Source: Ktedonobacteraceae bacterium
GTDB lineage: Bacteria > Chloroflexota > Ktedonobacteria > Ktedonobacterales > Ktedonobacteraceae
NCBI GenBank assembly: GCA_035533955.1
Contig: DATLSW010000273.1
Span: forward strand, 1-48,905
DNA length: 48,905 nucleotides
Direction of reading: 5' to 3'
Position numbers and translations under genes: made by a program
The notes under the pieces: model-generated
Told to the model about the DNA's origin: nothing
Seen by the model: the letters and a program-made list of their open reading frames with translations, nothing else
Database searches by the model: none
Shown here: piece by piece, positions 11,234-35,531 of the stretch
Numbering within the stretch: position 1 is the stretch's first letter
How the letters are laid out: the number at the start of each line of letters is the position of its first letter

Positions 11234-11683
11234 TCACCTGGAAGAACTGAGAGAGGCAATCACTCGTTCCAGGCGAGTTCGCGCCTCGCCTGCCAGTTGT
11301 TGTAATGCGGGATTGTGAACGATGCCGAGCATTGCAACGGGATCGGCAATTTCTACACGCGTCCTTTTCCCCTTATCTCCAGCGTCGTCATGCGCTTCAT
11401 AAACGACGACGTTACAGGGCAGCAGCAATCCGACATCGTGATCAAGCTCAAGGGCTCGATGCGCAAGTTGGGGATTGCAGGCTCCAAGAATGGAGTAACG
11501 CTCGTAATCTATGTTGAGTTTGGCTTTCATCGTTGCCTGAACATCGATCGTAGTGAGTACTCCAAACCCTTCAACTTTTAGCGCCTCTGTCACACGCTCG
11601 ACTGCCTCATCAAACGGCAGGTTGACCGTAGTGCCAAATCCATAGTCGGGACCTTTCGTTGTAGGCGGTTGTGTATTTGTCAT
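11234..11683 (-). CDS. DUF302 domain protein
   Basis: GFGTTVNLPFDEAVERVTEALKVEGFGVLTTIDVQATMKAKL...YSILGACNP...LLPCNVVVYE is the DUF302 pattern. Start set at MTNTQPP, after AGGAAG. Confidence 0.75.
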   Translation of the reverse strand: MTNTQPPTTKGPDYGFGTTVNLPFDEAVERVTEALKVEGFGVLTTIDVQATMKAKLNIDYERYSILGACNPQLAHRALELDHDVGLLLPCNVVVYEAHDDAGDKGKRTRVEIADPVAMLGIVHNPALQQLAGEARTRLERVIASLSSSR

Positions 11684-11855
11684 TGTCGTTTCTTCCTTTC
11701 CGATTGGAAATGTCATCTGCACATTTGCGGGGTGTGTCCTCATGCAAAAAGTGCGATAACAATACTATAGATTACGCGCATCAATTATCTTTGCGCTTAA
11801 TAGGCGATAGATGAAGTTGAGTACCTTGTGAACGCACGGTTCATCGTCGCAACCC

Positions 11856-12065
11856 TCAAGTACTGCCGCCTGTACTACTATCGCAGCTACTGCTGCTCAA
11901 ATTGCCGGTAACACCACTATTCATTCGCTGTGCAACCTGCGAGATACGACGCTGCACATATGTATGACCGCACTGCGGGCAGGGTACCGCGTCAGCCTGG
12001 CTGAAGCTCACAATTTTTTCAAATGCCGCTCCACATTGGGAGCAGCGATACTCATACATCGGCAT
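11856..12065 (-). CDS. FmdB-family zinc-ribbon protein (CxxC_CxxC_SSSS type)
   Basis: MPMYEYRCSQCG...VPCPQCG plus the Ser-rich tail SSSSCDSSTGGST. Confidence 0.8.
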   Translation of the reverse strand: MPMYEYRCSQCGAAFEKIVSFSQADAVPCPQCGHTYVQRRISQVAQRMNSGVTGNLSSSSCDSSTGGST

Positions 12066-12124
12066 ATATATCCTATACCTCCCGTATTGTTTCTCCGCTA
12101 CAGATTATTTTTTCGCGCTGATGG

Positions 12125-12589
12125 TTACTTGCTGGCATTGAAACCTAGCGTACGCGCCTGTGAAGCAAACTGCTCTTGTATGCCTACACATACCACATCA
12201 CATAACGTCAATGCTGTACGATCAGCGATCGCATAGTAGATACTGGTTCCCACTTTACGACGACTCACCAGTCCTCCCTGCATCAAGGCGGCCAGGTGTT
12301 TGGAAACATTGGGCTGCCCGGCTCCTGTAAGCGAGACGAGTTCTCCCACGTTACGCTCTCCGGCTGTAAGCGCAGCCAGTAACTTGAGGCGCAGCGGTTC
12401 GCTAAGCAACCGGAAACGAGCCGCAATCAGGTCGAGCAGCGGTTCGGAAAATCCATGCTCGCTATCGACCAGAGTCCATAAAGCAGACGGAATTATACTT
12501 TCTTTCTCAGCGATCTCTTCTCCATCTCTGCATAAAACCGTTTCTTGTTGATCCATACACATCATCCTTCTCAATTGTTCAGCCAGCAA
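12125..12589 (-). CDS. ArsR/SmtB-family transcriptional regulator (copy 1)
   Basis: LLSEPLRLKLLAALTAGERNVGELVSLTGAGQPNVSKHLAALMQGGLVSRRKVGTSIYYAI is the winged HTH. Cys residues lie in the N-terminal extension and in a C-terminal CDVVC. The true start may be an internal Met. Confidence 0.85.
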   Translation of the reverse strand: MLAEQLRRMMCMDQQETVLCRDGEEIAEKESIIPSALWTLVDSEHGFSEPLLDLIAARFRLLSEPLRLKLLAALTAGERNVGELVSLTGAGQPNVSKHLAALMQGGLVSRRKVGTSIYYAIADRTALTLCDVVCVGIQEQFASQARTLGFNASK

Positions 12590-12680
12590 ATCTCAGACGT
12601 TGGCGCATAAGAGATACTCCAACAGACCGGTACAAATATTTCCTCGCACGAGCATCTATTGGTATTTCTTACCTAAAGCA

Positions 12681-12725
12681 TTGACTCTATGACTATATAG
12701 TAATATAATTATAGACATCTGTCAA
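12681..12725. promoter_or_regulatory. face-to-face divergent sigma-70-like promoters sharing a 13-4-13 inverted-repeat operator
   Basis: Plus strand: TTGACT (12681..12686), 17 nt, TATAAT (12704..12709). Minus strand: TTGACA (12725..12720), 17 nt, TACTAT (12702..12697). Inverted repeat TCTATGACTATAT (12686..12698) / ATATAATTATAGA (12703..12715) matches 11 of 13 and covers both -10 boxes. Confidence 0.6.
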
Positions 12726-12794
12726 TAGGTTCCGTACTCACTGAAATGTAAAGTACGGAAAGTGAGCAGAACAAGTCAGCAATAGTAAAGGATA

Positions 12795-13148
12795 ATGACA
12801 ATGTTCCAACGATTTTTTGGAGGATCGAACTCTACCATTCCAGCGATCAGCCCGCCTGATGCCTGGAAACGGCTCTCCCAAACTGGTGCAAAGCCAGTCC
12901 TCATCGATGTACGAGAAGGTTGGGAATTTAAGAGCGGCCATGCGAAAGGAGCTAAAAATATTCCTCTGAGCCAGATACAGGAGCGAGTAGGAGAAGTGCC
13001 GCGCGATCGCGAAGTTCTGCTTATTTGCCAGAGCGGACACCGCAGTATGCGGGCGGCCAAATTCTTGCAAGATCAAGGCATTGAGCAGATCGTGAATGTG
13101 ACAGGAGGCACCACTGTCTGGAAAATGCATGGAATCCCTATGGAATAG
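12795..13148 (+). CDS. single-domain rhodanese-like sulfurtransferase
   Basis: VLIDVRE..EF..GHAKGAKNIPL and the active-site loop CQSGHRS. ATG 12801 is an equally good start. Confidence 0.85.
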   Translation: MTMFQRFFGGSNSTIPAISPPDAWKRLSQTGAKPVLIDVREGWEFKSGHAKGAKNIPLSQIQERVGEVPRDREVLLICQSGHRSMRAAKFLQDQGIEQIVNVTGGTTVWKMHGIPME

Positions 13149-13183
13149 AGCGAGCGAAAAAGTTCGTGCCTGTTGAAAAAGTT

Positions 13184-13217
13184 CTGCCAGTTCCTCAACC
13201 TGTTGAGGGACTGGCAG
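13184..13217. terminator. 16-bp hairpin between convergent genes (T-run on the minus-strand side)
   Basis: CTGCCAGTTCCTCAAC / GTTGAGGGACTGGCAG. On the minus strand it is followed by AACTTTTTC. Confidence 0.6.
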
Positions 13218-13251
13218 AGCTAACGACTGTTTGTCATACTACTTTTATTTG

Positions 13252-13608
13252 TCACTCTGTCTCTGCGTTGGTATCCTGGAGATGGAGAACCAGTTCCTGG
13301 CGCAACTTCTCGTCTCGATCGAGCTGGTTCATGAGGATTTCGGTGATGATGTTGAACGCCTGCATGATGCGCTTATCAGATAGGCTGTAGTAGATGGTGA
13401 CGCCTTCGCGGCGCGAGTTGACGATATTGGTGGAGCGCATGACGGCCAGGTGTTGCGAGAGATTCGCCATGCGTACACCCGTTGCTTCGGCCAGGTCGCC
13501 CACACTGCATTCGCCGCGCTCGTCCAACAATTGAAGCAGTTCCAACCGCAGCGGATTGGCGAAAACAGAGCAGAGTTCGGCGTGCCGCCGGTAAAATTCT
13601 TTATCCAT
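13252..13608 (-). CDS. ArsR/SmtB-family transcriptional regulator (copy 2)
   Basis: HAELCSVFANPLRLELLQLLDERGECSVGDLAEATGVRMANLSQHLAVMRSTNIVNSRREGVTIYYSL. Confidence 0.85.
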   Translation of the reverse strand: MDKEFYRRHAELCSVFANPLRLELLQLLDERGECSVGDLAEATGVRMANLSQHLAVMRSTNIVNSRREGVTIYYSLSDKRIMQAFNIITEILMNQLDRDEKLRQELVLHLQDTNAETE

Positions 13609-13771
13609 AAATGGTCTTTTGCTACCCCTTCGCGCAGCTCGCGCGATCTTTCCTGGCTACACAACAGCCTGAACTTCACAGCAAACTGACTTTTCGTCTC
13701 TAACAAAGACGAATACAAACCACCTCTTTATCACTATTGTCGCACAATTGGACATTCAAAGCAAGCGATCT

Positions 13772-13984
13772 TTATCCATTTGATGAGCTATCCTGGGCGG
13801 AAGACTCCTTCGCGGCCCAGATCTGTTTCAGACGCTGTACAATGACGGCGCGCATCTGGCGATTAATGAAGCCCTGTTCTTCCCAACGATTGAGCAGGTT
13901 GGCGATCTCTTCGCGGCTGCGCGATGGATCGCCTGCCAGCATCTGCGCGAAATTTTCAATAACTGCCTCTAACTCCATACTCAT
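13772..13984 (-). CDS. 70-aa helical protein of unknown function, last gene of the shdr operon strand
   Basis: MSMELEAVIENFAQMLAGDPSRSREEIANLLNRWEEQGFINRQMRAVIVQRLKQIWAAK... Start set at ATG 13984, after AAGGTGAG. The track's longer ORF (to 14161) overlaps the upstream gene. Confidence 0.4.
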   Translation of the reverse strand: MSMELEAVIENFAQMLAGDPSRSREEIANLLNRWEEQGFINRQMRAVIVQRLKQIWAAKESSAQDSSSNG

Positions 13985-14090
13985 CTTGCTCACCTTACCA
14001 TGATATAACCGACGACCGGTAAAATTGGCACAAGAAGGCATAGCAGCAGGCTCAGGCAGATAGACTCGTCGAGCATACCTCGTCTCCGGC

Positions 14091-14663
14091 TCAGATGAAC
14101 AGGGAAACGTCGGCATCCTTCGCGTAGTCGATGAAGTGGGTCGCTCCGCACACCTGCTCAACGCCGTCGATAAAATCCTCTGACTTATAGCCGAAAACGT
14201 CCATCGTCATACCGCAAGGCATCAGTTTGACACCGGCTTCAACCGCCATTTCCAGCAGTTCTTCAATCGTCGCGACGTTATGGGCCTTAAACATCTTCTT
14301 CATGATCGTCGTTCCCATCGCCGTCATGCCAGGTATCGCGCCGACGATGTTGGGTACAGGCATGGGCATAGCTGGATTCCCCAGAGGCGCAACGCTCAGA
14401 TGTTTCTTCTTGTGAATGATGTTCAGGCCGTAGAATGTGAAGAAAATGCCTACGTCCCAGCCCAGAGCCGCCGCTGTCGTCGCCAGAATCAATGGAGGAT
14501 AGGCCCAGTCAAGCGTCCCCTTGGTGGCGATGATCGCGAGCCGTGGCGTGCGTGTCTCCTTCTCTGCCTCTTTCTCCTGTAAGTAAGCGTCCACTCGTTC
14601 GCGGATGAGACGCTCTATCTCAGGAGACAATCTTTCCTGCTGTGTTTCCGTCTGCATATCCAT
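14091..14663 (-). CDS. DsrE/DsrF/DrsH-like family protein (YrkE / PF13686-type)
   Basis: LAIIATKGTLDWAYPPLILATTAAALGWDVGIFFTFYGL...VKLMPCGMTMDVFG...ADVSLFI matches my memory of Bacillus YrkE-type proteins with the conserved Cys. The N-terminal ~45 aa form a charged helix. AAGGAG RBS. Confidence 0.7.
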   Translation of the reverse strand: MDMQTETQQERLSPEIERLIRERVDAYLQEKEAEKETRTPRLAIIATKGTLDWAYPPLILATTAAALGWDVGIFFTFYGLNIIHKKKHLSVAPLGNPAMPMPVPNIVGAIPGMTAMGTTIMKKMFKAHNVATIEELLEMAVEAGVKLMPCGMTMDVFGYKSEDFIDGVEQVCGATHFIDYAKDADVSLFI

Positions 14664-14753
14664 TGGGCAACTCCTTCCGCAAGCTCACCGCTTGCTGCTT
14701 TAGATAACGATGTTACTCCATATTCTACGTGCTAAAAGCACGCTGAACGCCCA

Positions 14754-15836
14754 TTATGCTGCTTCGTGCGTGCCACTTGCTTGCAAGATGACGCTCGCAA
14801 TATCGTCAGGAGTAACGCCTGGAGCCTGGATGTGGTAATCCTGCCAGAAGAGCGCGACGCGCTCGCGTAACTCCTGCTGCTCCAGCGCCGATCCCAACAA
14901 CACCTGCTCCAACGCGCCGATGGTATCCTGCGGATAGATGAAGAAATCGCCGCTGAGCGTCACATCATCCAGCAGTTGATCGCGCACGCGGATAGTCGCG
15001 CGGATCAATCCTCCGGGCGCTTTATAGGCTGCTTCCTGCACATGAATCCCTTCGGAAATCTTCACGCCGGGACGTTTCAGGCCGCCAGCTTGATCTAGCC
15101 ACTCTCGGCTGCTGAACACCTCGCGCAGCCTGACCATCTCGCGCAGTTCCCGTTCGGTCAGGTCGCCGAAATAGGCATCGACGCCGAGTGTTTCGGCGAT
15201 CTGGCTGATCAGGATGCGCTTTCCTTCGTCCCACGATGGCGCTCTGTCGCCAAGCTCGCGGCGAATCGTCGATAAATATTCGCGCAAGCTCTGGTACACC
15301 TTGTCGCGAAACTTTTCCGACGGGACTTTGAGGACGCGCGCCATCACTTCGTAATCGAAATCGAAAATCAGGCTGCCGACTACCACCATAGCCTCGCCGA
15401 TGGTGGCCGCGCCCGTCCCGCCAATTTTGCGTCCCTCGATCTGAATATCGTTGACGGGTCGATGCACTGCCGGAATGCCCATCGCGCGCAGCGCGTTGAC
15501 CGGCCCGGCAAGATAGCGCGAGTAGACATCCTCTATGCGATAGGGTGCGCGCGAGCGGTGAACGATGAAATGCCAGAAAAGCTGGTTTTTATCCAGGTAA
15601 ACCGCTCCACCTCCTACTTGCCGTCGTGTAACCGGCAGTCCGTGTTCCTCACAATAAGCCACGTCCACTTCTTTGTCCAACTCCTGGTGATAGCCGAGGC
15701 ATACATACGGCGTCGCCGGACTCACCAGCGTCAGCGTATCCTCGCTCGCCTCGGTCATCGCCGAGGCCACGGCATGATAGATTACCTGGCTATCGAGCCA
15801 GGGAACTGTGCCGCCATCAATGACGCGAAGTTTCAT
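14754..15836 (-). CDS. lipoate--protein ligase (LplA-like, sLpl(AB)-type)
   Basis: Biotin/lipoate A/B ligase fold: TLVSPATPYVCLGYHQ, RRQVGGGAVYLD, and GRKIGGTGAA carrying the catalytic Lys. Lies directly downstream of two GcvH-like genes. Confidence 0.8.
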   Translation of the reverse strand: MKLRVIDGGTVPWLDSQVIYHAVASAMTEASEDTLTLVSPATPYVCLGYHQELDKEVDVAYCEEHGLPVTRRQVGGGAVYLDKNQLFWHFIVHRSRAPYRIEDVYSRYLAGPVNALRAMGIPAVHRPVNDIQIEGRKIGGTGAATIGEAMVVVGSLIFDFDYEVMARVLKVPSEKFRDKVYQSLREYLSTIRRELGDRAPSWDEGKRILISQIAETLGVDAYFGDLTERELREMVRLREVFSSREWLDQAGGLKRPGVKISEGIHVQEAAYKAPGGLIRATIRVRDQLLDDVTLSGDFFIYPQDTIGALEQVLLGSALEQQELRERVALFWQDYHIQAPGVTPDDIASVILQASGTHEAA

Positions 15837-15893
15837 ATCGCACCTTCCTCAATTTCCTGGACGAGCGCGGGAAGCGTCCCTGCTCTCTGCCCA

Positions 15894-16352
15894 TCAATCC
15901 ATGCAGCGATAGCATTGCAATTTGCGCGCCTCGATTTTCTCGCGATATTCTGCAACAGCCTGCACTTGCGGCAGCAGAAGCGGCCATTCCTCGTCAAAGC
16001 GAGTCGGCTTTAATCGTATCATCCAGCCGTTGCCATACGGGTCTTTATTCGCCAACAAGATGTTCTGCTTGAAGCCAGCTTCGTTCGTCGCGACGATCTC
16101 GCCTGTGAGCGGCGTCGGAAATGGGCCAACCCACTTGGCGCTTTCTATCGTCGCCGCACTCTGACCGCGCTGCAATGTCCGTCCTATCGCTTTGAAGCGG
16201 ATATGTACGAATTTCCCGCACTGCGCCTGCGCCGGATCGGTCATGCCCATTGTTACGCAGCCGTCTTCGTCGCGCCGCAGCCACACATCGTGTTCCACAT
16301 CAAAATAGCAATCTTCTGGAAACTCGCACCCGCGATAGATCACCGAGGTCAC
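15894..16352 (-). CDS. lbpA: GcvH-like lipoate-binding protein LbpA (copy 2)
   Basis: GMTDPAQAQCGKFVHI...GQSAATIESAKWVGPFPTPLTGEIV...DPYGNGWMIRLKP, with the lipoyl-Lys in ESAKW. Start set at GTG 16352, 9 nt after GGGAGGG. This avoids the 70-nt overlap implied by the track ORF. Confidence 0.8.
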   Translation of the reverse strand: MTSVIYRGCEFPEDCYFDVEHDVWLRRDEDGCVTMGMTDPAQAQCGKFVHIRFKAIGRTLQRGQSAATIESAKWVGPFPTPLTGEIVATNEAGFKQNILLANKDPYGNGWMIRLKPTRFDEEWPLLLPQVQAVAEYREKIEARKLQCYRCMD

Positions 16353-16374
16353 GTATTGTTTCCCTCCCGCGTTG

Positions 16375-16812
16375 TTACGCGCAGTGAATGCCCTTTTCAT
16401 CGAGCAATTGCTGGTAGAGGGCGACGCCTTCATCGCCCGTGACAAGGCTTTTGCACTCTTCGCCCCAGTTTGCCGGTTTCACCTTGACGATCCAACCTTC
16501 GCCATACGGGTCCTGGTTGAGCAGACCGGGATTCTTCTTGAGCGCTTCGTTGATAGCTACCAGTTCGCCGCCCACGGGCAGCGGAACCGGCCCGACCCAC
16601 TTACCGCTTTCAACCGTTCCCGCGCTTTGCCCCTTGCTGAGTGCCTTGCCCACCTTCTTCGGGCTGACCGCAATCACTTTGCCGGCCAGGTGTTGCGCCA
16701 CATCGGTCACGCCGACCGTCACCACTGAATCCGCGTCTAAGCGCGCCCAGATATGTTTGTCAACCAGGTAGTAGAGATTTTCCGGGATATTGCACCCGTT
16801 CGCTTTTGCCAT
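16375..16812 (-). CDS. lbpA: GcvH-like lipoate-binding protein LbpA (copy 1)
   Basis: GVTDVAQHLAGKVIAV...GQSAGTVESGKWVGPVPLPVGGELV...DPYGEGWIVKVKP, with the lipoyl-Lys in ESGKW. Confidence 0.85.
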   Translation of the reverse strand: MAKANGCNIPENLYYLVDKHIWARLDADSVVTVGVTDVAQHLAGKVIAVSPKKVGKALSKGQSAGTVESGKWVGPVPLPVGGELVAINEALKKNPGLLNQDPYGEGWIVKVKPANWGEECKSLVTGDEGVALYQQLLDEKGIHCA

Positions 16813-16850
16813 ACTGTTGTTCCGTCCCTCTCATTGTATGTTATCAGGCT

Positions 16851-17123
16851 TCACTCCTCGTGTGCCGCCTCCACATGATAGAGTAACATATCAAACGCCA
16901 CGAGGCGTATTTCGCGTTCATACGTATCCCAAAACTCTGGATCATGCCCGCGCGGTTTCACCTCTTGCTCGGCATATTCGTCACAGAGCGGGCAATCGAG
17001 CCGGTAGTAGAGCCGATCCGTCTTTTCGTCACGCCGCCCGCGCACGTTTTCTCCATGCCGCTCAACCAGGTGAGCATGGAGTTCGCGCCGCGACCCTTCG
17101 ACACTGCAATACGGACAGTGCAT
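16851..17123 (-). CDS. 90-aa putative zinc-binding protein with two CxxC...Hx4H units, unknown function
   Basis: MHCPYCSVEGSRRELHAHLVERH (C3,C6,H18,H23) and LDCPLCDEY...LLYHVEAAHEE (C44,C47,H83,H88). AGGAGG RBS. Tightly packed between emo and lbpA. Confidence 0.6.
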   Translation of the reverse strand: MHCPYCSVEGSRRELHAHLVERHGENVRGRRDEKTDRLYYRLDCPLCDEYAEQEVKPRGHDPEFWDTYEREIRLVAFDMLLYHVEAAHEE

Positions 17124-17132
17124 CGCAACCTC

Positions 17133-19316: not shown

Positions 19317-19346
19317 TGGGACCTCTCTCTGGGTTATATGGTCTCT

Positions 19347-20330: not shown

Positions 20331-20333
20331 TGA

Positions 20334-22449: not shown

Positions 22450-22452
22450 AGG

Positions 22453-27001: not shown

Positions 27002-27130
27002 ATGTACCTCCCGGTTGTACAACAATGTACGAACGATAACTCTCTGCAAACTTCGACAGGGTAGGATCGCGAACGGGTTACAACGTAGGCAGCAGCATTC
27101 CAAAATTCATAATTTAGAATGTTAGAAACT

Positions 27131-27236: not shown

Positions 27237-28040
27237 TCACAGCGCTTGCTCGCTGAAGATAGGGCGCATCTCACGAATGGCTGTCATGCCGTTTCTGGTA
27301 TCGCCATGACGACGTAGCGCGAGACGGTAGCTGACACGGTCAGGTCGATAGTAGCGTTTTTGGAGGTAGATAGGAACATCGCCTGTCGTGTAAGAGATAC
27401 GCTGGATGAGCAGCAGCGCGGCATTCGGCACTGATTTGAGCAACGCTGCTTGTTCAGGGGTTGCTGTTGTCGCCGTAATGTTGAAAACCCCTGTCTCGAC
27501 GGGAATGCCATAGCGTTTTTCCAGAATATGATAGACTGATTCACTTGCCAGCATATCTTCCGTTAGCAACAAGCCGAAACGCAGTGGTAACCAGGTTGTA
27601 TCGTATGCGATTGGTCGCTCATTCGCCAGCCGCAAGCGATCTACGCGTACAACTTCATTGTGAACCGGCACAGCTAAGGCTTCAGCTATCTCCGGCGTCA
27701 CCGGCTCGCGCGTGAAGGTGAGTACGCGAGAAGAGGAGTTGAGTCCAGCCAGTTCCATATCCTCGACAAAGTCGGTCAGCCGCACCAGGTCTTGCTCGAT
27801 CGTCCGCTCAGCTACGTAGGTTCCCTTGCCATGCCGCCGCACAATCGCCCCTTCCGCTTCCAGCTCGTCGAGAGCCTGCCGCACGGTGATACGACTCACG
27901 CCATACCTCTTGATCAGTTCCGGCTCAGAGGGCAACCGATCACCTGGTTGGTAGTTGCCCTGTTCGATCTCAGTACGCACGATCTGTTTCAATTGATGAT
28001 AGAGCGGAGTCGGCCCAGGGTTCAGTTGTTGTGTAGTCAT
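27237..28040 (-). CDS. GntR-family (HutC subfamily, UTRA effector domain) transcriptional regulator
   Basis: LYHQLKQIVRTEIEQGNYQPGDRLPSEPELIKRYGVSRITVRQALDELEAEGAIVRRHGKGTYV plus a C-terminal UTRA-like domain. Start set at ATG 28040. Confidence 0.85.
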   Translation of the reverse strand: MTTQQLNPGPTPLYHQLKQIVRTEIEQGNYQPGDRLPSEPELIKRYGVSRITVRQALDELEAEGAIVRRHGKGTYVAERTIEQDLVRLTDFVEDMELAGLNSSSRVLTFTREPVTPEIAEALAVPVHNEVVRVDRLRLANERPIAYDTTWLPLRFGLLLTEDMLASESVYHILEKRYGIPVETGVFNITATTATPEQAALLKSVPNAALLLIQRISYTTGDVPIYLQKRYYRPDRVSYRLALRRHGDTRNGMTAIREMRPIFSEQAL

Positions 28041-28079
28041 GAATCCCCTTACTGTTAGTTTTAGTCTTGTCATGATGAT

Positions 28080-28335: not shown

Positions 28336-29784
28336 GTGAGAGGTGCAGCGATACAAATCGAACAAAATTTTCTCGATGGACTGGGACACCAATCCCACTA
28401 TGTCACCGATGGGACAAGCGGCTTTGCCGCTGTCGTCGATCCCCGGCGCGATGTAGATAGTTATCTGCAAGCAGCCAGACGAACGAATACTGTAATCACA
28501 CACATCCTGGAGACCCATATCCACAACGATTACGTCACCGGCGCGCGGGAACTGGCATCCCGGACGGGGGCGGCCATCGTTGCCAGCGCCGACGCACAGC
28601 TTGTCTATCCTCATCTACCCGTGCATGATGGCGATCAATTTCAAGTGGGTGAGTTGCGCTTCCAGGTCATGGCGACACCAGGTCACACGCCGGAACACAT
28701 GAGCTATATTGTCTATGAGCCAGGCAGTAGTACGCCCTACGCTGTATTCAGCGGAGGCAGTATGCTTGTCGGCGGAGCCGGTCGCACTGATCTGCTTGGA
28801 TCTGGTATGACACTGACGCTCACACGCCAGCAGTACCATTCATTGCGACGACTGCTGGATACGTTGCCCGGCAGCGTTCTCGTCTATCCCACGCATGGAG
28901 CCGGTTCATTCTGTGTCGCCAGCTCCGTCTCTTCCTCGCGCAGTACAACGATTGGACAGGAGCGGCTCGTCAGTCCCGCTGTCCAGGCATACAGCGAAGA
29001 GGCGTTCGTGAAGCAGCAGATCGCCGGGTATACAGCCTATCCGCACTATTACGAATACATGCACGACATTAATCAGAGTGGCCCGCGTATCCTCGGCTCG
29101 CTTCCCAAATTGGCCTCTTTTGCGCCTCCCGTTGTCCAGGAATGGATGCGGGCAGGCGTTCCGCTCGTTGACGGGCGTTCGCGCGACGCTTTCGCACGCG
29201 AACATGTTCCTGGTTCGCTGAATATAGAACTCGATAGTTCATTTGGAACGTATGTTGGTTGGCTTTTGCCGTTCAACACCCCCTTGCTGCTGTTGATCGA
29301 GGATGAAGAAGGGCGTCGCGAGGCGGTAGTGCAACTGGTGCGTATCGGCTATGAGAAAGCGCAGGGCTACCTGGAAGGGGGTATTGTCGGCTGGAAAGCA
29401 GCAGCCCTGCCCACTGGGAGCTTTGAGCGCATCGATCTCGCTACCCTGCATAAGCGTTGGGAAGCGCGCTATCCCATGACGATTATCGATGTGCGCCGCG
29501 ATGACGAGTGGCAAGAAGGTCACATCTCTGATTCCTTGCATTTCCACATCGGCGAATTGCCGCAGCAGCTCGGCGACGTTCCACGCGGTGGGCCGCTCGC
29601 GGTCATTTGCCGTACCGGGCATCGGGCCGAAATCGCGGCCAGCATCCTGGCCGCGAGCGGGCGTGAAGTCATCGCAGTTCAAGGCGGCGTCCCCGATTGG
29701 ATCGAGCGCGGTTGGCCTTCCGACAGCGGTGAGCCTTCAGTCTCGTCAACTCATCTGGATCAATCGTTGCACGCGCATCTATAA
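28336..29784 (+). CDS. MBL-fold persulfide dioxygenase fused to two rhodanese domains (CstB / YrkH-like)
   Basis: MBL motifs ETHIHNDYVTG, TPGHTPEH, YPTHGAGSFC. The C-terminal rhodanese has the active-site loop VICRTGHRA. GTG start with a weak SD, so the start is uncertain. Confidence 0.75.
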   Translation: MRGAAIQIEQNFLDGLGHQSHYVTDGTSGFAAVVDPRRDVDSYLQAARRTNTVITHILETHIHNDYVTGARELASRTGAAIVASADAQLVYPHLPVHDGDQFQVGELRFQVMATPGHTPEHMSYIVYEPGSSTPYAVFSGGSMLVGGAGRTDLLGSGMTLTLTRQQYHSLRRLLDTLPGSVLVYPTHGAGSFCVASSVSSSRSTTIGQERLVSPAVQAYSEEAFVKQQIAGYTAYPHYYEYMHDINQSGPRILGSLPKLASFAPPVVQEWMRAGVPLVDGRSRDAFAREHVPGSLNIELDSSFGTYVGWLLPFNTPLLLLIEDEEGRREAVVQLVRIGYEKAQGYLEGGIVGWKAAALPTGSFERIDLATLHKRWEARYPMTIIDVRRDDEWQEGHISDSLHFHIGELPQQLGDVPRGGPLAVICRTGHRAEIAASILAASGREVIAVQGGVPDWIERGWPSDSGEPSVSSTHLDQSLHAHL

Positions 29785-29850: not shown

Positions 29851-30738
29851 TCAGGACGTCGTTTCGATCAGATGCAGAAAAGCCTGCGCCGCCTTCGATA
29901 AACATTTCTCATTGAGGCGTACAATTAAGAGTGATCGCCGCACGGAAAAATTGCTCAATAGGATCTGTTTCAGATATCCTGAAGCTACCTCAAACTGGAT
30001 AGTATGTGCTGATACGAACGAAACGCCCAGCCCGGCGGCAACAGCGCGTTTAATGGCCTCAGTGCTGCCTAGCTCTATGATGGGGTGAACAGGCTCGACG
30101 CCGTAACGTTCGAGTGCCTGCTCCAGTACTGATCTCGTTCCTGATCCCTGCTCGCGTAATATAACCGGCGGCTTCTGGGCCAGGAACTGCTGGATCGTTT
30201 GCTCTCCCTCGGGCAGCAAATAGGTGGGCGGCGCGATCAGGACAAGTTCATCCTGTCGCCATACCTGCTCGCTCAATTCCTGGTGCGTAACGCTTCCTTC
30301 GACCAGGCCCACCTCAAGCCGGTGAACCAGTAGCTTTTGCTGAATCTCTTCGGTATTGCCAATTTCGACGACAAGATCAATACCGGGATACTGCTCTTTG
30401 TAGCGTCCCAGCAATTCCGGCAGCAGATACGTCCCAATTGTCGTACTCGCCCCCAACGTCAGCCGACCGCGTTCCAATTGCTGCATCTCGCCCAGCGCGG
30501 ACTCCGCTTCCGCCGACAGCGCGAAGATACGATCGGCATAGTCGTAGAGCAGTTTGCCCGCCTCGGTTAAATAGATCTTCTGTCCTACCTGTGTAAAAAG
30601 CGGCTGATTCAGAGTTTTCTCAAGCTGATGCACCTGTTTCGAGACTGCGGGCTGGCTGATGTACAGGGCTTCTGCTGCGCGAGTGAAGTGTCGCAGTTCC
30701 GCGACTTTGTGAAAGATAAGCAACTGGTTGAAGTTCAT
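29851..30738 (-). CDS. LysR-family transcriptional regulator
   Basis: MNFNQLLIFHKVAELRHFTRAAEALYISQPAVSKQVHQLEKTLNQPLF. Start set at ATG 30738, because LTTR HTH domains begin at the N-terminus. The track start 30864 runs through the repeat tract. Confidence 0.9.
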   Translation of the reverse strand: MNFNQLLIFHKVAELRHFTRAAEALYISQPAVSKQVHQLEKTLNQPLFTQVGQKIYLTEAGKLLYDYADRIFALSAEAESALGEMQQLERGRLTLGASTTIGTYLLPELLGRYKEQYPGIDLVVEIGNTEEIQQKLLVHRLEVGLVEGSVTHQELSEQVWRQDELVLIAPPTYLLPEGEQTIQQFLAQKPPVILREQGSGTRSVLEQALERYGVEPVHPIIELGSTEAIKRAVAAGLGVSFVSAHTIQFEVASGYLKQILLSNFSVRRSLLIVRLNEKCLSKAAQAFLHLIETTS

Positions 30739-30792
30739 TTTCGTCTCCTCTTTATCTCCTTTTCGTCTCCTCTTCATCTCCTCTTCATCTCC
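30739..30792. repeat. ~5 tandem copies of an 11-nt unit (plus strand CTCTTCATCTC; minus strand GAGAYRAARAG)
   Basis: Units: CTCTTTATCTC (30748..30758), CTTTTCGTCTC (30759..30769), CTCTTCATCTC (30770..30780), CTCTTCATCTC (30781..30791), plus a partial unit at 30739..30747. The tract abuts the LysR start codon. Confidence 0.8.
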
Positions 30793-30958
30793 ACTTAGGA
30801 ATGGTGCGGTCAATAACGTGAAGCTATTGTTTCTATATATAACATGTATTGGAGTTATTGGCAAACAGGTTTATACTACCTGGAAAGAAGAATGAATTCC
30901 TCATGCTTCCAGGAAGACCCTTTGGTAGCGTCTTTCTGATCACTACGACGGAGTCGCT

Positions 30959-32587
30959 ATGACGAAATACGCCTTTGTTATCGATCAGCGCAAGTGTATT
31001 GGCTGTCATGCCTGTACGGTGGCGTGTAAAGCCGAACATGATGTCCCCATCGGCGTTTATCGCACATGGGTGAAGTACATCGAGAAAGGCGAGTTCCCCA
31101 ACTCGCGCCGCTATTTCCTGGTCAATCGCTGCAATCATTGCGACAACGCCCCTTGCGTTGCCATTTGCCCAACAAAGGCGCTGTATAAGCGCGCCGACGG
31201 TATTGTTGATTTCGACTCTAACCGCTGTATTGGCTGCAAGTCATGTATGCAAGCCTGCCCATATGACGCTCTCTACATTGATCCCTATAGCCATACGGCC
31301 GCCAAATGTAATTACTGCGCTCATCGCACTGAGGTAGGATTGGAACCGGCGTGCGTGGTCGTTTGCCCTGAACACGCCATCATTGCCGGTGATATGCACA
31401 ATCCGAACACGGAGATCGCGCAGCTCATCGCGCGCCAGCCGGTGCGCGTGCGTAAGCCCGAACAGGGAACCGGTCCGAATGTCTATTATCTTGGAGCGGA
31501 CGAAGCTGCCATCAATCCTGAAGCAGCTACGGAAGAACTGCCGCATATGACGATGTGGAGTACGCTGCTCAAACCGCATCATGAAAACGAAAGCGCCATC
31601 GACGCGAGCAGGTCGCTGCGCGCGCCTGCCACGATCAACCCACTCCCGTCCTCTCATCCGCGAAGCGAGCAGCGCTTTCGTCCCGCCGATGCCCATATTG
31701 TCTACGATACGCCCAAAAATCAACAGCCCTGGGGTTGGATGGTCTCAGCATACCTGGGTACAAAATCGATTGGAGCCGGGGCAATGATGGTAGCCGCGCT
31801 GGCCCTGGCGCTCTATGGATTGAGCGGTACTCTTAGTGGCGCGATGAGTATGTTACTGGGTACCATCGCTCCCATTATCGGCGGCTTCTTTATTGCTGTG
31901 ACGCTGGTGCTGCTGGTAGCGGACCTCAAACGTCCTGAACGCTTTATCTACCTGGTATCTAAGGCCAATCCAACATCCTGGCTTGTCTGGGGCGGTGCGA
32001 TCCTGGCAGTTTTCGGACTGATCCAGGCTCTCTGGTTTGGCGCGGCCGTTTTCGGTCTCACCGTAATACTTCGCCTGTTGATAGTCCCGGCGGCGCTGTT
32101 TGGTCTTGCGGCGGCTGGCTATACCGCGTTTCTTTTTGGACAGGCCGAAGGACGCGACTTCTGGCAAAGCCCGCTGCTCTTCCCCATTCTCATTGTACAG
32201 GCCATGCTGGCGGGAGTAGCCGCTCTCGGCATCATGGCCTGGATATTCACTCCAGGCGGCATACTGAGTACATTCCTCACCATTGTCTTTCTTTGTACCC
32301 TCGCTGCCCATATTGTGCTTGTTATGATCGAGATCTTCGGCGCGCACAGTAACAGTCATGTTGCTGCCGCTGCTCATTATATTTACAGGGGCAAATTACA
32401 AAAACTGTTCTGGGGGCCATTTTTCGTTCTCGGCTCGATCATCCCCCTGATCATGGTCTGCCTTGCCCTGCTAGTTCCTGTCGCTTTGCCGGCGCTACTC
32501 GGCATTGCAGGGATTCTCGCGTTGCCTGGTCTTTTCACCTACGAACACTGTTTTGTAACTGCCGGGCAGATTGTGCCGCTCAGTTAA
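30959..32587 (+). CDS. fused 4x[Fe-S] ferredoxin subunit (PsrB/NrfC/SoeB-like) and 8-TM NrfD/PsrC/SoeC-like quinone-interacting anchor
   Basis: CIGCHACTVACK, CNHCDNAPCVAICP, CIGCKSCMQACP, CNYCAHR...CVVVCP, then eight hydrophobic helices. The N-terminus starts directly at the first cluster motif, with no signal peptide. Confidence 0.85.
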   Translation: MTKYAFVIDQRKCIGCHACTVACKAEHDVPIGVYRTWVKYIEKGEFPNSRRYFLVNRCNHCDNAPCVAICPTKALYKRADGIVDFDSNRCIGCKSCMQACPYDALYIDPYSHTAAKCNYCAHRTEVGLEPACVVVCPEHAIIAGDMHNPNTEIAQLIARQPVRVRKPEQGTGPNVYYLGADEAAINPEAATEELPHMTMWSTLLKPHHENESAIDASRSLRAPATINPLPSSHPRSEQRFRPADAHIVYDTPKNQQPWGWMVSAYLGTKSIGAGAMMVAALALALYGLSGTLSGAMSMLLGTIAPIIGGFFIAVTLVLLVADLKRPERFIYLVSKANPTSWLVWGGAILAVFGLIQALWFGAAVFGLTVILRLLIVPAALFGLAAAGYTAFLFGQAEGRDFWQSPLLFPILIVQAMLAGVAALGIMAWIFTPGGILSTFLTIVFLCTLAAHIVLVMIEIFGAHSNSHVAAAAHYIYRGKLQKLFWGPFFVLGSIIPLIMVCLALLVPVALPALLGIAGILALPGLFTYEHCFVTAGQIVPLS

Positions 32588-32633
32588 ATCGGCCGTACCG
32601 ACGTTGCCTTGCCTGAAAAGGAGCTATAGATAG

Positions 32634-35531
32634 ATGACTGAAATTCCCTTGAAACAGCACATTGCTCCGAGTGGAGAACCAATGACAGTGCGCGATCTCG
32701 CTTCTTGCCCACCACCGGAGAAGTGGCAGGATTGGGTCGAGTATGACGCAAAAGCATGGCCGCGCAAAGTCGCGAGGCACTATGAGTTGATTCCCACCAT
32801 CTGTTTCAATTGTGAGGCAGCCTGCGGGCTTCTTGCCTACATCGATAAAGAGACAGGACAGGTCAAACGCTTCGAGGGCAATCCCTATCACCCTGGCAGC
32901 CGAGGGCGCAACTGCGCCAAAGGGCCGGCCACCATCAACCAGATACATGATCCCGAACGCATCCTTTATCCTCTGAAACGTGTCGGCAAGCGCGGCGAGG
33001 GCAAGTGGGAGCGCGCGACCTGGGACGAGGCGCTGGAGACCATCGCGGCCAAAATCCGCGCCGCCATTATCGAAGATCGGCGCGACGAAGTGATGTATCA
33101 TGTCGGGCGTCCTGGACACGACGGCTATATGGAGCGCGTGCTGGGTGCGTGGGGCGTTGATGGACACAATAGTCACACCAATGTCTGCTCCTCAAACGCT
33201 CGCTTCGGCTACCATATCTGGTGCGGTATTGATCGTCCTTCGCCCGATCACGCCAACGCTCGTTTTATCCTGCTCATCAGTTCTCATTTGGAGACAGGCC
33301 ATTACTTCAACCCCCATGCCCAGCGCATCATCGAGGGCAAGATGAAGGGCGCGAAGCTGGCCGTCATGGACCCGCGTCTCTCCAATACTGCCAGTATGGC
33401 CGACTACTGGCTGCCGACCTGGCCGGGATCAGAGGCGGCAGTATTGCTCGCGATGGCGCGGATTTTGCTGCTGGAGAATCTGTACAACCGCGATTACATG
33501 CGGCGCTGGGTCAACTGGCGGGAGTTTTTGGCGGCTGAATATCCAGGCGAACCGCAGACGTTCGATCGATTCATCGAGCTGCTTATCGAATTGTATGCCG
33601 AATTTACGCCTGCCTTTGCCGCCCAGGAAAGCGGCCTCGCGGAAGATACCATTATCGATATCGCCCGGCAGATCGGGCAGGCCGGGACTGCTTTCGCGGC
33701 ACATACCTGGCGTGCCGCGAGCGCCGGCAACCTGGGCGGCTGGCAGGTCTCGCGCGCGCTCTGGTTCCTCTCGGTGCTGACAGGCAGCATCGGCACGCCA
33801 GGTGGTACAGCCCCTTATAGCTGGAACAAGTTTGTTCCCACGCCGTACATCAAACCCAGCCCCTCTGAAGTATGGAACGAATTGCTTTTCCCGCCGGAAT
33901 ATCCCCTGGCGAATTACGAGATGAGCATTCTGCTGCCCTACTTCCTCAAGGAGGGGCGCGGCAAGCTCTCGGCCTATTTCACGCGCGTTTACAATCCGGT
34001 ATGGACGAATCCCGACGGCACGGCCTGGATCGAGGCGCTGACCAACGAGCAGCAGATTGAACTGCATGCCGCGCTGACGCCCACCTGGAACGAGACGGCG
34101 TGGTACGCGGACTACGTGCTGCCGATGGGTCTTGCCAGCGAGCGGCACGATCTGATGAGCCAGGAGACGCACGCCGGGCGCTGGATCGGCTTCCGCCAGC
34201 CGGTGTTGCGCGTCTATAAGGAGCGGCACGGCGAGCCGATGCAGTACACCTACGAAGCCAATCCAGGTGAAGTGTGGGAAGAAGACGAATTCTGGATCGA
34301 GTTGTCCTGGCGCATTGATCCCGACGGCAGCCTGGGCATTCGCAAGTACTTCGAATCGCCCTATCGCCCAGGCGAAAAGCTCTCTATCGAGGAATATTAT
34401 CGCTGGATGTTCGAGAACAGCGTGCCGGGTCTCCCGGAGGCCGCCGCCCAGGAAGGTCTTTCGCCATTGGGCTTCATGCAAAAATATGGCGCGTTCGCCG
34501 TTCCGCAAGAGAACGTACCAACGTATATGTTGAACGAGCAAGCGTTGAAGCTCTCTGACGTGGAAGGTTCCATCCTCGACAAAGCGTTGAGCGGCCTTTC
34601 GCCAGATGGGGCCGGCGAAGAGCAGCCCTCTAACCAGCAAGGAATCCAGGTTGATAGACAAACTGGCGTCATAAGCCGTGACGGGATCAAGATCGGCGTT
34701 CTAGTGGATGGCAAGGCATACGAAGGCTTTTCCACGCCCTCGCGCAAGCTGGAATTCTACTCGCCTACGCTCAAAACGTGGGGCTGGCCGGAGTGCGCGA
34801 TTCCAGGCTACACGCACAGTCATGTGCATCCTTCCAACATCGATCCTGAGCGCGGAGAATATCTGCTCATCCCGACATTTCGCCTCCCTACGCTCATTCA
34901 TACACGCTCCGGCAATGCCAGGTGGCTCACCGAGATCTCCAATGCGAACCCGGTCTGGATCCATCCTACCGACGCTGAGCGACTTGACGTGCAGACGGGC
35001 GATCTCATTCGTGTAAGCACTGAGATCGGCTACTACGTCAATCGCGTCTGGGTGACGGAAGGCATTCGTCCAGGTGTGGTTGCTTGCTCGCACCACATGG
35101 GGCGCTGGCGACTGGCGACGGACATGGGAGCGGATCGCTGGGCATCCGCGCTGGTTTCGCTTGGGAAGGAGTCGGACGGTTCCTGGCAATTGCGACAGCT
35201 CGAGGGAGTGCGCCCCTACCAGAGTGACGAACCGGATTCGGCGCGCATCTTCTGGCGTGAAGCGGGTGTACACCAGAATCTGACCTTCGGAGTACATCCT
35301 GATCCGGTGAGCGGTATGCACTGCTGGCATCAAAAAGTCGTTGTTGAACCGGCCCGCGCTGGCGATCGGTATGGGGATGTTCATGTCGATAGACAAAAAG
35401 CCTATGAGGTCTACAAACAGTGGCTGGCAATGGCGCGCCCGCAGTTGGATCGCTCTGATCGTCTGCGCCGCCCGTTGTGGATGATACGTCCTTATCGACC
35501 GGCAGCCAGTGTGTTCAAACACAAACAGTGA
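32634..35531 (+). CDS. molybdopterin (bis-MGD) oxidoreductase catalytic subunit without a Tat signal; SoeA-like sulfite dehydrogenase candidate
   Basis: N-terminal [4Fe-4S] motif CFNCEAACGLLAY...GSRGRNCAKG. 965 aa. No RRxFLK-type twin-arginine motif in the first 60 residues. The Soe-type function is inferred from predicted cytoplasmic orientation and sulfur context only. Confidence 0.85.
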   Translation: MTEIPLKQHIAPSGEPMTVRDLASCPPPEKWQDWVEYDAKAWPRKVARHYELIPTICFNCEAACGLLAYIDKETGQVKRFEGNPYHPGSRGRNCAKGPATINQIHDPERILYPLKRVGKRGEGKWERATWDEALETIAAKIRAAIIEDRRDEVMYHVGRPGHDGYMERVLGAWGVDGHNSHTNVCSSNARFGYHIWCGIDRPSPDHANARFILLISSHLETGHYFNPHAQRIIEGKMKGAKLAVMDPRLSNTASMADYWLPTWPGSEAAVLLAMARILLLENLYNRDYMRRWVNWREFLAAEYPGEPQTFDRFIELLIELYAEFTPAFAAQESGLAEDTIIDIARQIGQAGTAFAAHTWRAASAGNLGGWQVSRALWFLSVLTGSIGTPGGTAPYSWNKFVPTPYIKPSPSEVWNELLFPPEYPLANYEMSILLPYFLKEGRGKLSAYFTRVYNPVWTNPDGTAWIEALTNEQQIELHAALTPTWNETAWYADYVLPMGLASERHDLMSQETHAGRWIGFRQPVLRVYKERHGEPMQYTYEANPGEVWEEDEFWIELSWRIDPDGSLGIRKYFESPYRPGEKLSIEEYYRWMFENSVPGLPEAAAQEGLSPLGFMQKYGAFAVPQENVPTYMLNEQALKLSDVEGSILDKALSGLSPDGAGEEQPSNQQGIQVDRQTGVISRDGIKIGVLVDGKAYEGFSTPSRKLEFYSPTLKTWGWPECAIPGYTHSHVHPSNIDPERGEYLLIPTFRLPTLIHTRSGNARWLTEISNANPVWIHPTDAERLDVQTGDLIRVSTEIGYYVNRVWVTEGIRPGVVACSHHMGRWRLATDMGADRWASALVSLGKESDGSWQLRQLEGVRPYQSDEPDSARIFWREAGVHQNLTFGVHPDPVSGMHCWHQKVVVEPARAGDRYGDVHVDRQKAYEVYKQWLAMARPQLDRSDRLRRPLWMIRPYRPAASVFKHKQ

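Follow-up and report, generated by a model that had tools for sequence, protein, structure and literature searches.

The 48,905-nucleotide contig DATLSW010000273.1 of assembly GCA_035533955.1, from a soil Ktedonobacteraceae bacterium, is referred to here, at its full length, as the window, and its positions 11234-35531 carry a sulfur-oxidation locus of about 25 genes. The open reading frames (ORFs) of the window were called and then scanned against Pfam and NCBIfam profiles, by which nearly all genes of the locus can be placed in cytoplasmic sulfur oxidation. A preliminary description, made by reading the sequence, had likewise assigned almost every gene within these 24 kb to a single pathway, and every class that it listed was recovered at the positions given: two ArsR/SmtB regulators, a GntR and a LysR regulator (all four found by Pfam), the carriers rhodanese, TusA, DsrE3 and a second DsrE (the last a 190-residue DrsE_2 protein), a persulfide dioxygenase-rhodanese fusion, an Hdr-like/LbpA module, and a 965-residue molybdoenzyme without a twin-arginine signal. 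Overlooked at that stage were etfAB, an Emo-like protein, a lipoate ligase, a fused FeS::NrfD partner of the molybdoenzyme, and the DUF302 and zinc-ribbon genes. Together, the three modules into which these genes fall would probably constitute a cytoplasmic route from sulfane sulfur to sulfate, built from new members of known families.

The locus is dominated by a long minus-strand array that runs from 28073 to 14091 and encodes, in order of transcription, a GntR/UTRA regulator, TusA, DsrE, HdrC-like, HdrB-like and HdrA-like proteins, a 254-residue protein, an HdrC/HdrB fusion, EtfB and EtfA, after which it continues with a 727-residue membrane Fe-S protein, two GcvH-like proteins, an LplA-type ligase and the 190-residue DrsE_2 protein. 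To the left of the array lie an ArsR gene, a divergent 117-residue rhodanese gene and an ArsR / zinc-ribbon / DUF302 operon. To its right lie a fusion of a metallo-beta-lactamase (MBL) domain with two rhodanese domains, a LysR gene and, divergent from the latter, a fused 4x[4Fe-4S]::NrfD gene followed by that of the 965-residue molybdopterin enzyme. The clustering of these sulfur genes is not due to chance, because the same sHdr gene set recurs in synteny both in an ENA contig with a 93%-identical molybdoenzyme (L002) and in a type II sHdr cluster outside the host lineage (L087). The genes of the middle block are as follows.

14091-14663, minus strand: DrsE_2-family sulfurtransferase, 190 residues (Pfam PF13686, E 4e-52), with a cysteine in a KLMPCGMT motif and a homologue in L087
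14754-15836, minus strand: lipoate-protein ligase, sLpl-like (Pfam LplA-B_cat, E 2e-38, plus C-terminal domain), with the same gene in L087
15894-16812, minus strand: two tandem LbpA (ORFs 15894-16445 and 16375-16812; Pfam GCV_H, E 5e-29 and 4e-38), with lipoyl-lysine motifs ESAKW and ESGKW
17133-19316, minus strand: Emo-like ETF:menaquinone oxidoreductase, 727 residues, with about six N-terminal hydrophobic helices and a QmoC-like match over residues 28-162
19347-20330 and 20334-21119, minus strand: etfA and etfB (Pfam ETF_alpha and ETF, E about 1e-30)
21184-22449, minus strand: sHdrB3, an HdrC-like/HdrB-like fusion of 421 residues (Fer4 and CCG domains; HdrC and TfrB the top NCBIfam matches)
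22453-23217, minus strand: sHdrH, a conserved hypothetical protein of 254 residues, at the same position in L002 (419 bits) and L087 (246 residues)
23233-24312, minus strand: sHdrA, a short HdrA flavoprotein of 359 residues (top PDB match 6TJR, E 5e-87, residues 8-356)
24296-25510 and 25564-26376, minus strand: sHdrB1 and sHdrC1, the start of the latter uncertain (top NCBIfam matches HdrB, 135 bits, and HdrC, 85 bits; GlcF scores 21)
26318-26698, minus strand: DsrE3-type sulfurtransferase, 126 residues (Pfam DsrE, E 1e-17), with a cysteine in YVCQPS
26759-27004 (ORF to 27103), minus strand: TusA (Pfam TusA, E 4e-23), with an LCPVP motif

Judged by this gene content, the block between 13.25 and 27.1 kb can be assigned with high confidence to the type II sHdr systems, and it fits the published type II arrangement because etfAB, a membrane Fe-S protein and a lipoate ligase join the Hdr-like genes. 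The published arrangement is shdrC1B1AHB3-etfAB-emo, where sHdrB3 results from a C2/B2 fusion and has only one non-cubane site (PMC11094781). In the window, shdrC1, B1, A, H and B3 are contiguous on the minus strand from 26376 down to 21184, in the order also found in L002 and L087, and etfB, etfA and then the emo-like gene lie immediately downstream of shdrB3. By sequence reading, the C-terminal CCG motif alone is complete in sHdrB3, as described for this protein (PMC11094781), and the Emo-like protein contains two [4Fe-4S] motifs and one complete CCG domain, its gene following etfBA as in the published type II cluster. The sHdrH protein has no Pfam or NCBIfam match. Methanogen HdrA aligns with sHdrA over the core only, and structure 6TJR we take to be the Hyphomicrobium sHdrA, consistent with the published account of type II sHdr.

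The likeness to described type II sHdr-LbpA systems (Justice 2014; Cao 2018; Kuempel 2024; Tanabe 2024) thus covers gene set and order, the one-CCG sHdrB3 fusion, etfAB and emo, and extends to the accessory TusA, DsrE3-type carrier, LbpA and dedicated lipoate ligase; Chloroflexota are among the commonest phyla, such systems occurring mostly in Chloroflexota, Actinobacteriota and Bacillota (PMC11094781). What differs is the host class, here Ktedonobacteria, and the direct adjoining of the cluster to a CstB-type dioxygenase and a PSRLC3-type molybdoenzyme. The cluster L087 differs further in that its lbpA-lplA-DrsE_2 genes lie upstream of shdrC1, whereas those of the window lie downstream of emo. 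The preliminary description treated the arrangement as one not known to have been described and in this overstated its novelty, as type II sHdr has already been described in Chloroflexota (PMC11094781), and in stationary-phase Thermomicrobium roseum a 19-gene type II cluster (trd_0160-0142) is induced more strongly than any other locus (PMC6776052). For Ktedonobacteria, no published description of sHdr was found in the limited collection of literature searched, and the cultured ktedonobacterium Thermogemmatispora T81 is reported to be without an sHdr system (PMC6776052). Published proof that type II systems in general convert sulfane sulfur to sulfite in vivo is indirect (PMC11094781).

A further comparison is with T. 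roseum (trd_0160-0142 and trd_A0831-A0835; Islam 2019), which possesses type II shdr, etf, lbpA, tusA and dsrE genes together with the ArsR, zinc-ribbon, DUF302, MBL-rhodanese and rhodanese families, and a two-gene molybdoenzyme at 62% identity. In that organism the genes are divided among the chromosome and two megaplasmid places, whereas in the window all lie within 24 kb. In an unclassified, unrelated metagenome-assembled genome (MAG; L022), an emo gene 55.5% identical to that of the window (341-2434) lies 3.4 kb upstream of a fused FeS::NrfD gene and molybdoenzyme gene (5895-12730), an independent second case in which the end of a type II sHdr cluster lies close to a two-gene molybdoenzyme. 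In the window, the two genes of this enzyme are the last of the locus.

30959-32587, plus strand: fused electron-transfer/membrane-anchor subunit, 542 residues, with a 4x[4Fe-4S] domain (Pfam Fer4_11, residues 52-145) and NrfD (residues 254-539, 8 helices)
32634-35531, plus strand: Mo/W-bisPGD catalytic subunit, 965 residues, a candidate PSRLC3-type sulfite:quinone oxidoreductase (Pfam Molybdop_Fe4S4, Molybdopterin and Molydop_binding)

The fused protein has no signal or RR motif, its first cluster motif starting at residue 13, and the catalytic subunit has no twin-arginine motif and possesses an FS0 motif of the form CxxCxxxC (CFNCEAAC...C). Because neither subunit carries a Tat motif and the FeS domain is fused N-terminal to NrfD, the redox subunits are predicted to be cytoplasmic, which implies the inverted NrfD orientation that a published survey has predicted for SoeC. 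The catalytic subunit falls under every NCBIfam cut-off, with PhsA as the top match (203 bits against a cut-off of 694). A placement in the nitrate, formate or arsenite clades would, according to the preliminary description, have told against its reading; the best scores are instead to PhsA, DmsA and PsrA types, over nitrate, formate and arsenate enzymes. The closest structures are PsrA (2VPW, E 6e-39) and ArrA, matched mostly over the N-terminal third, and Cys185 aligns with the Mo-ligand cysteine region of these two enzymes, the Cys185-Ser186 pair being invariant in the family.

In architecture the enzyme resembles PSRLC3 of green sulfur bacteria (Frigaard & Bryant 2008; Gregersen 2011), which likewise has two genes, a cytoplasmic orientation and a proposed role in sulfite oxidation. 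The likeness is drawn from layout and from published descriptions, in which PSRLC3 is given as '2 genes' and as 'inferred to be sulfite oxidase'; the sulfite-oxidising function is a hypothesis there and in the window alike. Full-length homologues with 60-61% identity, with a fused 521-residue gene upstream, are found in Chlorobium sp. N1 and two Chlorobiaceae MAGs. An equation of PSRLC3 with CT0494-0496 was dropped, since C. tepidum CT0496-CT0494 is a different, three-gene psrABC complex, and identity with the 'FqoABC' of Calisto & Pereira was rejected because their model gene, C. tepidum CT0494, belongs to that same complex.

The earlier designation of the enzyme as Soe-like holds for its cytoplasmic catalytic subunit, FS0 site and Mo-bisPGD domains and fails for its architecture, which is the two-gene fused form of PSRLC3 and not soeABC. 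With SoeABC of Allochromatium vinosum (SoeA D3RNN8), Aquifex aeolicus (aq_1234) and Ruegeria pomeroyi it shares the make-up of a cytoplasm-facing complex iron-sulfur molybdoenzyme: the catalytic subunit lacks a Tat signal and bears an N-terminal [4Fe-4S] site, and it is joined by a subunit with four clusters and by NrfD as the anchor. It would do the same job after sHdr or Dsr. Surveys of SoeC list Proteobacteria, three Clostridia-class Firmicutes species and Aquificae only. The full-length relatives that were traced are either two-gene fused forms (L088, L093) or operons in B-C-A order that may or may not include a TorD/NarJ-type chaperone (L089, L090, L092, L095); in one further case (L096) only an Fe-S gene was called upstream. 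A tblastn search against plasmids returned family members only, followed by PhsA/DmsA-type matches at about 26%; an Agrobacterium match was set aside as an unrelated 708-residue enzyme. A sister group at 33-46% identity, comprising loci from a Sulfurovum mangrovi plasmid (L005), Azoarcus sp. KH32C pAZKH (L090), L092 and L095, keeps FeS and NrfD as two genes, which precede that of the catalytic subunit, and has a TorD/NarJ-type chaperone after the latter; a large 4Fe-4S protein comes next in three of the four (L005, L090, L092), and a TatA/TatC pair is present in L095.

The distribution of the two-gene enzyme is broad. Its nearest relatives are in Ktedonobacteraceae, in keeping with the preliminary impression of a Ktedonobacteria-like genome: 93% identity in the ENA contig and 79% in Ktedonosporobacter rubrisoli and Dictyobacter aurantiacus, with about 85 molybdoenzyme clusters at 77-84% (about 90 down to 74%). 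A family scan with one genome per species yielded at least 593 relatives, of which the best 80 loci were used for neighbour counts. These 80 have 59-82% identity and span Chloroflexota, Acidobacteriota, Binatia, Bacteroidota, Chlorobium, Planctomycetota, Rokubacteria, Methylomirabilota and Gemmatimonadota, and nearly all of them have the fused gene immediately before the catalytic one. Plasmids of haloarchaea, Rhodococcus and T. roseum carry the molybdoenzyme at 53-62% identity. Haloarchaeal megaplasmids possess the same two-gene enzyme at 53-57%, and the family therefore crosses the domain boundary. A Pfam scan of the ORFs flanking the enzyme most closely on either side, 138 over the 80 loci, gave the following as the commonest families.

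Sulfate permease with STAS: 11
Rhodanese: 8
Metallo-beta-lactamase: 7
ThiS: 7
YeeE-type Sulf_transp: 3
Thioredoxin-like: 3
TauE: 2

In about 24 of the 80 loci, a CstB-like gene is found no more than 10 kb away. Individual loci give the same picture. In Rhodococcus jostii RHA1 plasmid pRHL3 (L004, 212195-234969), DsrE and TusA are directly upstream of the enzyme encoded by RHA1_RS43835 and RHA1_RS43840, in the order DsrE-TusA-[fused gene]-[Mo]-Mrp; a Natrinema caseinilyticum plasmid (L006) has a rhodanese, TauE, the two-gene enzyme, an Mrp/NBP35 ATPase and MobA; the Chlorobium loci have the pair and then TauE, DrsE_2, rhodanese and TusA; a Myxococcota contig combines the two-gene enzyme with an MBL-rhodanese and a pair of YeeE-type genes; and in L002 a TauE gene is near the molybdoenzyme. 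These recurring sulfite- and sulfate-related neighbours, which are circumstantial evidence, are the main support for a sulfite-to-sulfate function, and on balance we lean slightly towards the two-gene molybdoenzyme as an enzyme that oxidises sulfite to sulfate. As separate observations, pRHL3 is a mobilizable linear plasmid with a dense sulfur island that also includes three MBL-fold genes (two of about 455-460 residues and one of about 380), three ArsR genes, a rhodanese, a thioredoxin, two DUF202 genes and the Mrp/NBP35 ATPase. Just downstream of the molybdoenzyme of K. rubrisoli (L001, CP035758.1) are two adjacent minus-strand TauE-like ORF fragments (12937-13900), absent from the gene list of the record, which may represent a disrupted or uncalled sulfite-exporter gene.

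Between the sHdr block and the molybdoenzyme operon lie a dioxygenase and two regulators.

27237-28073, minus strand: GntR/UTRA regulator, encoded upstream of TusA and divergently from the dioxygenase (Pfam GntR and UTRA)
28336-29784, plus strand: CstB-type persulfide dioxygenase with two rhodanese domains (PDB 3TP9, E 5e-90, residues 8-463; 3R2U, E 6e-53)
29851-30864, minus strand: LysR regulator, divergent from the molybdoenzyme operon across a 94-bp spacer (Pfam HTH_1 and LysR_substrate)

Because it aligns end to end with 3TP9 and 3R2U, the dioxygenase fusion is classed as CstB type on its sequence. Its metal motif, THIHNDY, is intact, as is the C-terminal rhodanese cysteine within VICRTGHR, and the middle rhodanese domain is without a cysteine. 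CstB couples persulfide dioxygenation to sulfur transfer, and its product is thiosulfate, not free sulfite. The protein shares with CstB of Staphylococcus aureus (3R2U, 3TP9) the MBL dioxygenase domain, the cysteine-less rhodanese, the catalytic rhodanese and full-length similarity, but the cstR-cstA-cstB-sqr operon is not found here, the gene being divergent from GntR and beside the molybdoenzyme operon. The order GntR / rhodanese / persulfide dioxygenase / molybdoenzyme is also found in a Ktedonobacterales MAG (L009), a LysR gene is upstream of the molybdoenzyme operon in L002 and in K. rubrisoli as well, and in L002 the place of GntR and the dioxygenase is occupied by TauE and DUF1634.

The left arm of the locus consists of five genes, the last of which opens the sHdr block.

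11234-11743, minus strand: DUF302 protein, last gene of the ArsR / zinc-ribbon / DUF302 operon (Pfam DUF302, E 3e-22; 63% identity to T. roseum trd_A0833)
11856-12065, minus strand: zinc-ribbon protein (Zn_ribbon_8; Pfam E 7e-16; 47% identity to the T. roseum plasmid-operon gene in the same position)
12125-12589, minus strand: ArsR/SmtB regulator 1 (Pfam HTH_5)
12795-13148, plus strand: single-domain rhodanese, 117 residues (Pfam Rhodanese, E 1e-17), with active-site loop CQSGHRS (41% identity to trd_A0835)
13252-13608, minus strand: ArsR/SmtB regulator 2, first gene of a block with high GC content at third codon positions (GC3 0.71; Pfam HTH_20/HTH_5; 42% identity to a T. roseum plasmid ArsR)

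The best solved relative of regulator 1 is the persulfide sensor BigR (3PQJ), a weak match (E 3e-10). The T. roseum megaplasmid operon (L094 2992-5913, equal to NC_011961.1 817991-820912) has the order ArsR / zinc-ribbon / DUF302 / MBL-rhodanese fusion / rhodanese, of which ArsR / zinc-ribbon / DUF302 is kept in the window; the dioxygenase fusion of the window is 34% identical to its counterpart there. In stationary-phase T. roseum, trd_A0831 and trd_A0832 (ArsR), trd_A0833 (DUF302), trd_A0834 (MBL) and trd_A0835 (rhodanese) rank with the genes of highest induction, up 7-207-fold alongside shdr, with trd_A0833 induced 120-fold together with the shdr genes (PMC6776052, Table S1). These data, from another organism, are the sole expression-level evidence linking the left-arm genes with sHdr.

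From the gene content, families, cofactor and active-site motifs, cytoplasmic topology and synteny observed here, we infer the substrates, products and co-regulation of the following route. The first module (11.2-13.1 kb), comprising the ArsR / zinc-ribbon / DUF302 operon and the divergent rhodanese, would sense and handle persulfide, whose sulfur could come from thiosulfate, polysulfide or sulfide, via unknown enzymes, or from organosulfur breakdown. In the second (13.25-27.1 kb), rhodanese, TusA and DsrE-type carriers would hand persulfide sulfur to sHdrC1B1AHB3 and lipoylated LbpA, oxidation by which would release sulfite, with electrons passing through EtfAB and Emo to menaquinone, the route that has been proposed for type II systems (PMC11094781). 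In parallel, the GntR-linked CstB-type dioxygenase of the third module would convert low-molecular-weight persulfides and O2 to sulfite or thiosulfate, and the LysR-controlled molybdoenzyme would oxidise sulfite to sulfate and reduce menaquinone. The ArsR, GntR and LysR proteins would control the three modules.

A number of observations weigh against this route, and in particular against its last step. Since CstB yields thiosulfate rather than free sulfite, the substrate of the molybdoenzyme could be another sulfur oxyanion. In the literature searched, no characterisation was found of any enzyme of this locus or of any member of the two-gene molybdoenzyme family. Unlike soeA-soeB-soeC, whose genes are separate, the B and C components are here fused and precede A, and the fusion is kept across the family; none of the full-length relatives whose contigs were examined (33-49% identity) has an A-B-C operon. 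Canonical SoeA could not be recognised in the 150 best-scoring cluster representatives, so its relationship to the catalytic subunit is probably distant. The T. roseum homologues trd_A0628 and trd_A0629, identified via neighbouring RtcB and archease genes, are expressed and are not induced with shdr (1.0-fold and 1.6-fold). In K. rubrisoli the neighbours of the pair are a LysR, a response regulator and a PAS sensor, no shdr gene comes within 10 kb of it, and other Ktedonobacteria loci also have the molybdoenzyme without shdr nearby. Finally, the window encodes no sulfur importer and no sulfate or sulfite exporter.

Some of these points bear on a different view of the whole locus, namely that it mainly detoxifies reactive sulfur species (persulfides, H2S, or sulfite from cysteine or organosulfur breakdown) in a heterotroph living aerobically, or aids persistence in starvation, with no lithotrophic growth. 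We consider this unlikely, yet a serious contender. A CstB-type dioxygenase and ArsR proteins weakly similar to BigR/SqrR are typical of sulfide-stress operons, TauE sulfite exporters replace the dioxygenase in relatives, and the Pfam and NCBIfam scans of the window found neither Sox nor SQR, to be added to the missing importer. T. roseum, moreover, induces the homologous genes on nutrient limitation with no sulfur compound added (PMC6776052). Against this stands the presence of EtfAB-Emo and of a molybdoenzyme predicted to reduce quinone, which would conserve energy whatever the source of sulfur; detoxification and sulfur respiration are not mutually exclusive.

An alternative confined to the molybdoenzyme, which we regard as improbable, is that it acts on thiosulfate, polysulfide or tetrathionate in the cytoplasm, perhaps reductively, and is no sulfite dehydrogenase. 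Thiosulfate and polysulfide reductases are its top profile and structure matches, the context of the Mo-ligand cysteine is like that of PsrA and ArrA, its frequent partner CstB makes thiosulfate, and YeeE-type thiosulfate/sulfur transporters sometimes adjoin. Those matches, however, lie far under the family cut-offs and mainly in the N-terminal third, the predicted cytoplasm-facing orientation is unlike that of Psr, Phs and Ttr, and the commonest neighbour is a sulfate permease, with TauE sulfite exporters recurring. That the molybdoenzyme is instead a formate dehydrogenase or formate:quinone oxidoreductase in an incidental sulfur neighbourhood is very improbable: 'formate dehydrogenase' is the database name of the homologues in K. 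rubrisoli, D. aurantiacus, Entotheonella and T. roseum, and an N-terminal FS0 site and molybdopterin domains are common to Fdh enzymes, but the Fdh-alpha profile TIGR01591 scores 154 bits against a cut-off of 666, under PhsA and DmsA, Fdh structures rank under PsrA, ArrA and acetylene hydratase, and the neighbours are sulfur genes, with no formate transporters or fdh accessory genes. In formate dehydrogenases such as FdhH and FdnG a histidine stands beside the Sec/Cys ligand, where this family has an invariant serine after Cys185.

Least probable of all is that the Hdr-like and Etf genes encode a lactate-, glycolate- or other organic-acid-oxidising or electron-bifurcating complex unrelated to sulfur, an option that the preliminary description had itself raised in the form of the Lut and GlcF families: CCG-domain and Etf proteins do occur in LutABC, GlcF and Ldh-Etf systems, and weak Lut, GlcF and LdhH matches are seen, but HdrA, HdrB and HdrC are the top NCBIfam matches by wide margins (85-264 bits, against 21-37 bits for GlcF and LutB), sHdrA matches 6TJR, and TusA, two DsrE-family proteins, two LbpA and a dedicated lipoate ligase accompany the genes in the published type II order.

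Structurally the locus resembles a mosaic put together from three known modules, a pattern also apparent in the GC3 values of its genes.

DUF302 to rhodanese: GC3 0.48-0.51
Second ArsR to TusA (sHdr block, 13252-27103): GC3 0.64-0.75
GntR, dioxygenase, LysR and fused FeS::NrfD: GC3 0.57-0.60
Mo catalytic subunit: GC3 0.68

GC3 changes sharply where the sHdr block begins and where it ends, with no repeats, tRNA or mobility genes at its borders; because high GC3 recurs further downstream in the window, the GC3 evidence is suggestive only. For sHdrB3 there are two close clusters only (89% and 84%), all remaining relatives standing at 74% or less; the few named ones among the latter are from Calditrichota, Bacteroidota, KSB1, Armatimonadota and unclassified Chloroflexota, and no named Ktedonobacteria are among the sHdrB3 relatives. 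The molybdoenzyme, unlike sHdrB3, has many Ktedonobacteraceae relatives, and the other Ktedonobacteria loci compared have the dioxygenase-molybdoenzyme module without shdr. From these comparisons of sequence it is concluded that the dioxygenase/molybdoenzyme module is ancestral in Ktedonobacteraceae. The distinct GC3, the sHdrB3 relatives in other phyla and the absence of shdr from other Ktedonobacteria loci suggest that the sHdr block was probably acquired laterally by the host lineage and inserted next to that module. The preliminary description had regarded the locus as chromosomal core, given the lack of a flanking transposase or integrase. The latter observation is borne out, as no transposase, integrase or tRNA gene was seen anywhere in the window, but for the sHdr block, with its distinct GC3, its two close relatives and its next ones in other phyla, the idea of a chromosomal core is doubtful.

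The flanks of the locus encode glycosyltransferases, an ABC exporter, YdjC, SDR and Usp proteins, a two-component system and a P-type ATPase, and no riboswitch or other Rfam family was found in the window. Four small ORFs within the locus (11964-12236, 13166-13390, 13737-14003 and 13772-14161) were taken as spurious, having no Pfam match and being unconserved in every locus compared. A 373-residue ORF (35721-36842), on the same strand after the molybdoenzyme and with one N-terminal hydrophobic segment and no Pfam or NCBIfam match, was excluded from the system. Further along, at 40209-43589, is a 652-residue Fe-S flavoprotein whose pyridine-nucleotide-disulfide oxidoreductase domain (GltD/SudA-like) is accompanied by a DPD-type 4Fe-4S domain and two ferredoxin motifs; behind it come two ORFs, 227 and 212 residues long, that match no family.

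All parts of the locus come from known families, and the locus itself is no novel type of system; what makes it valuable is that it offers a compact case for studying what a widespread PSRLC3-type enzyme does. The molybdoenzyme family is present at 60% identity or more in very many phyla, mostly annotated as 'formate dehydrogenase' or generically, and the sulfite-oxidase hypothesis for it dates from 2008 and is still a hypothesis. A metagenomic survey found persulfide dioxygenases and sHdr to be abundant and direct sulfite-oxidising enzymes almost absent, a gap that would close if the PSRLC3-type family oxidises sulfite. Tentatively, and with slightly more reserve than for the enzyme of the window, the PSRLC3-type two-gene enzyme may serve Chloroflexota, Actinomycetota, Acidobacteriota, Bacteroidota, green sulfur bacteria and haloarchaea as their general sulfite:menaquinone oxidoreductase, a functional counterpart of SoeABC uncounted by SoeABC-based surveys, and those Ktedonobacteria that acquired sHdr may respire sulfane sulfur fully to sulfate as facultative lithoheterotrophs. 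The question is directly testable, because homologues exist in the cultured, tractable Rhodococcus jostii RHA1, Ktedonosporobacter rubrisoli, Dictyobacter and Thermomicrobium roseum. For the Ktedonobacteria, abundant pioneers of soils and caves and known scavengers of trace gases, the locus is a first indication of a complete cytoplasmic sulfur-oxidation route in some members, and such a route from sulfur to sulfate would give at least one of their lineages a further supplementary energy or detoxification trait.

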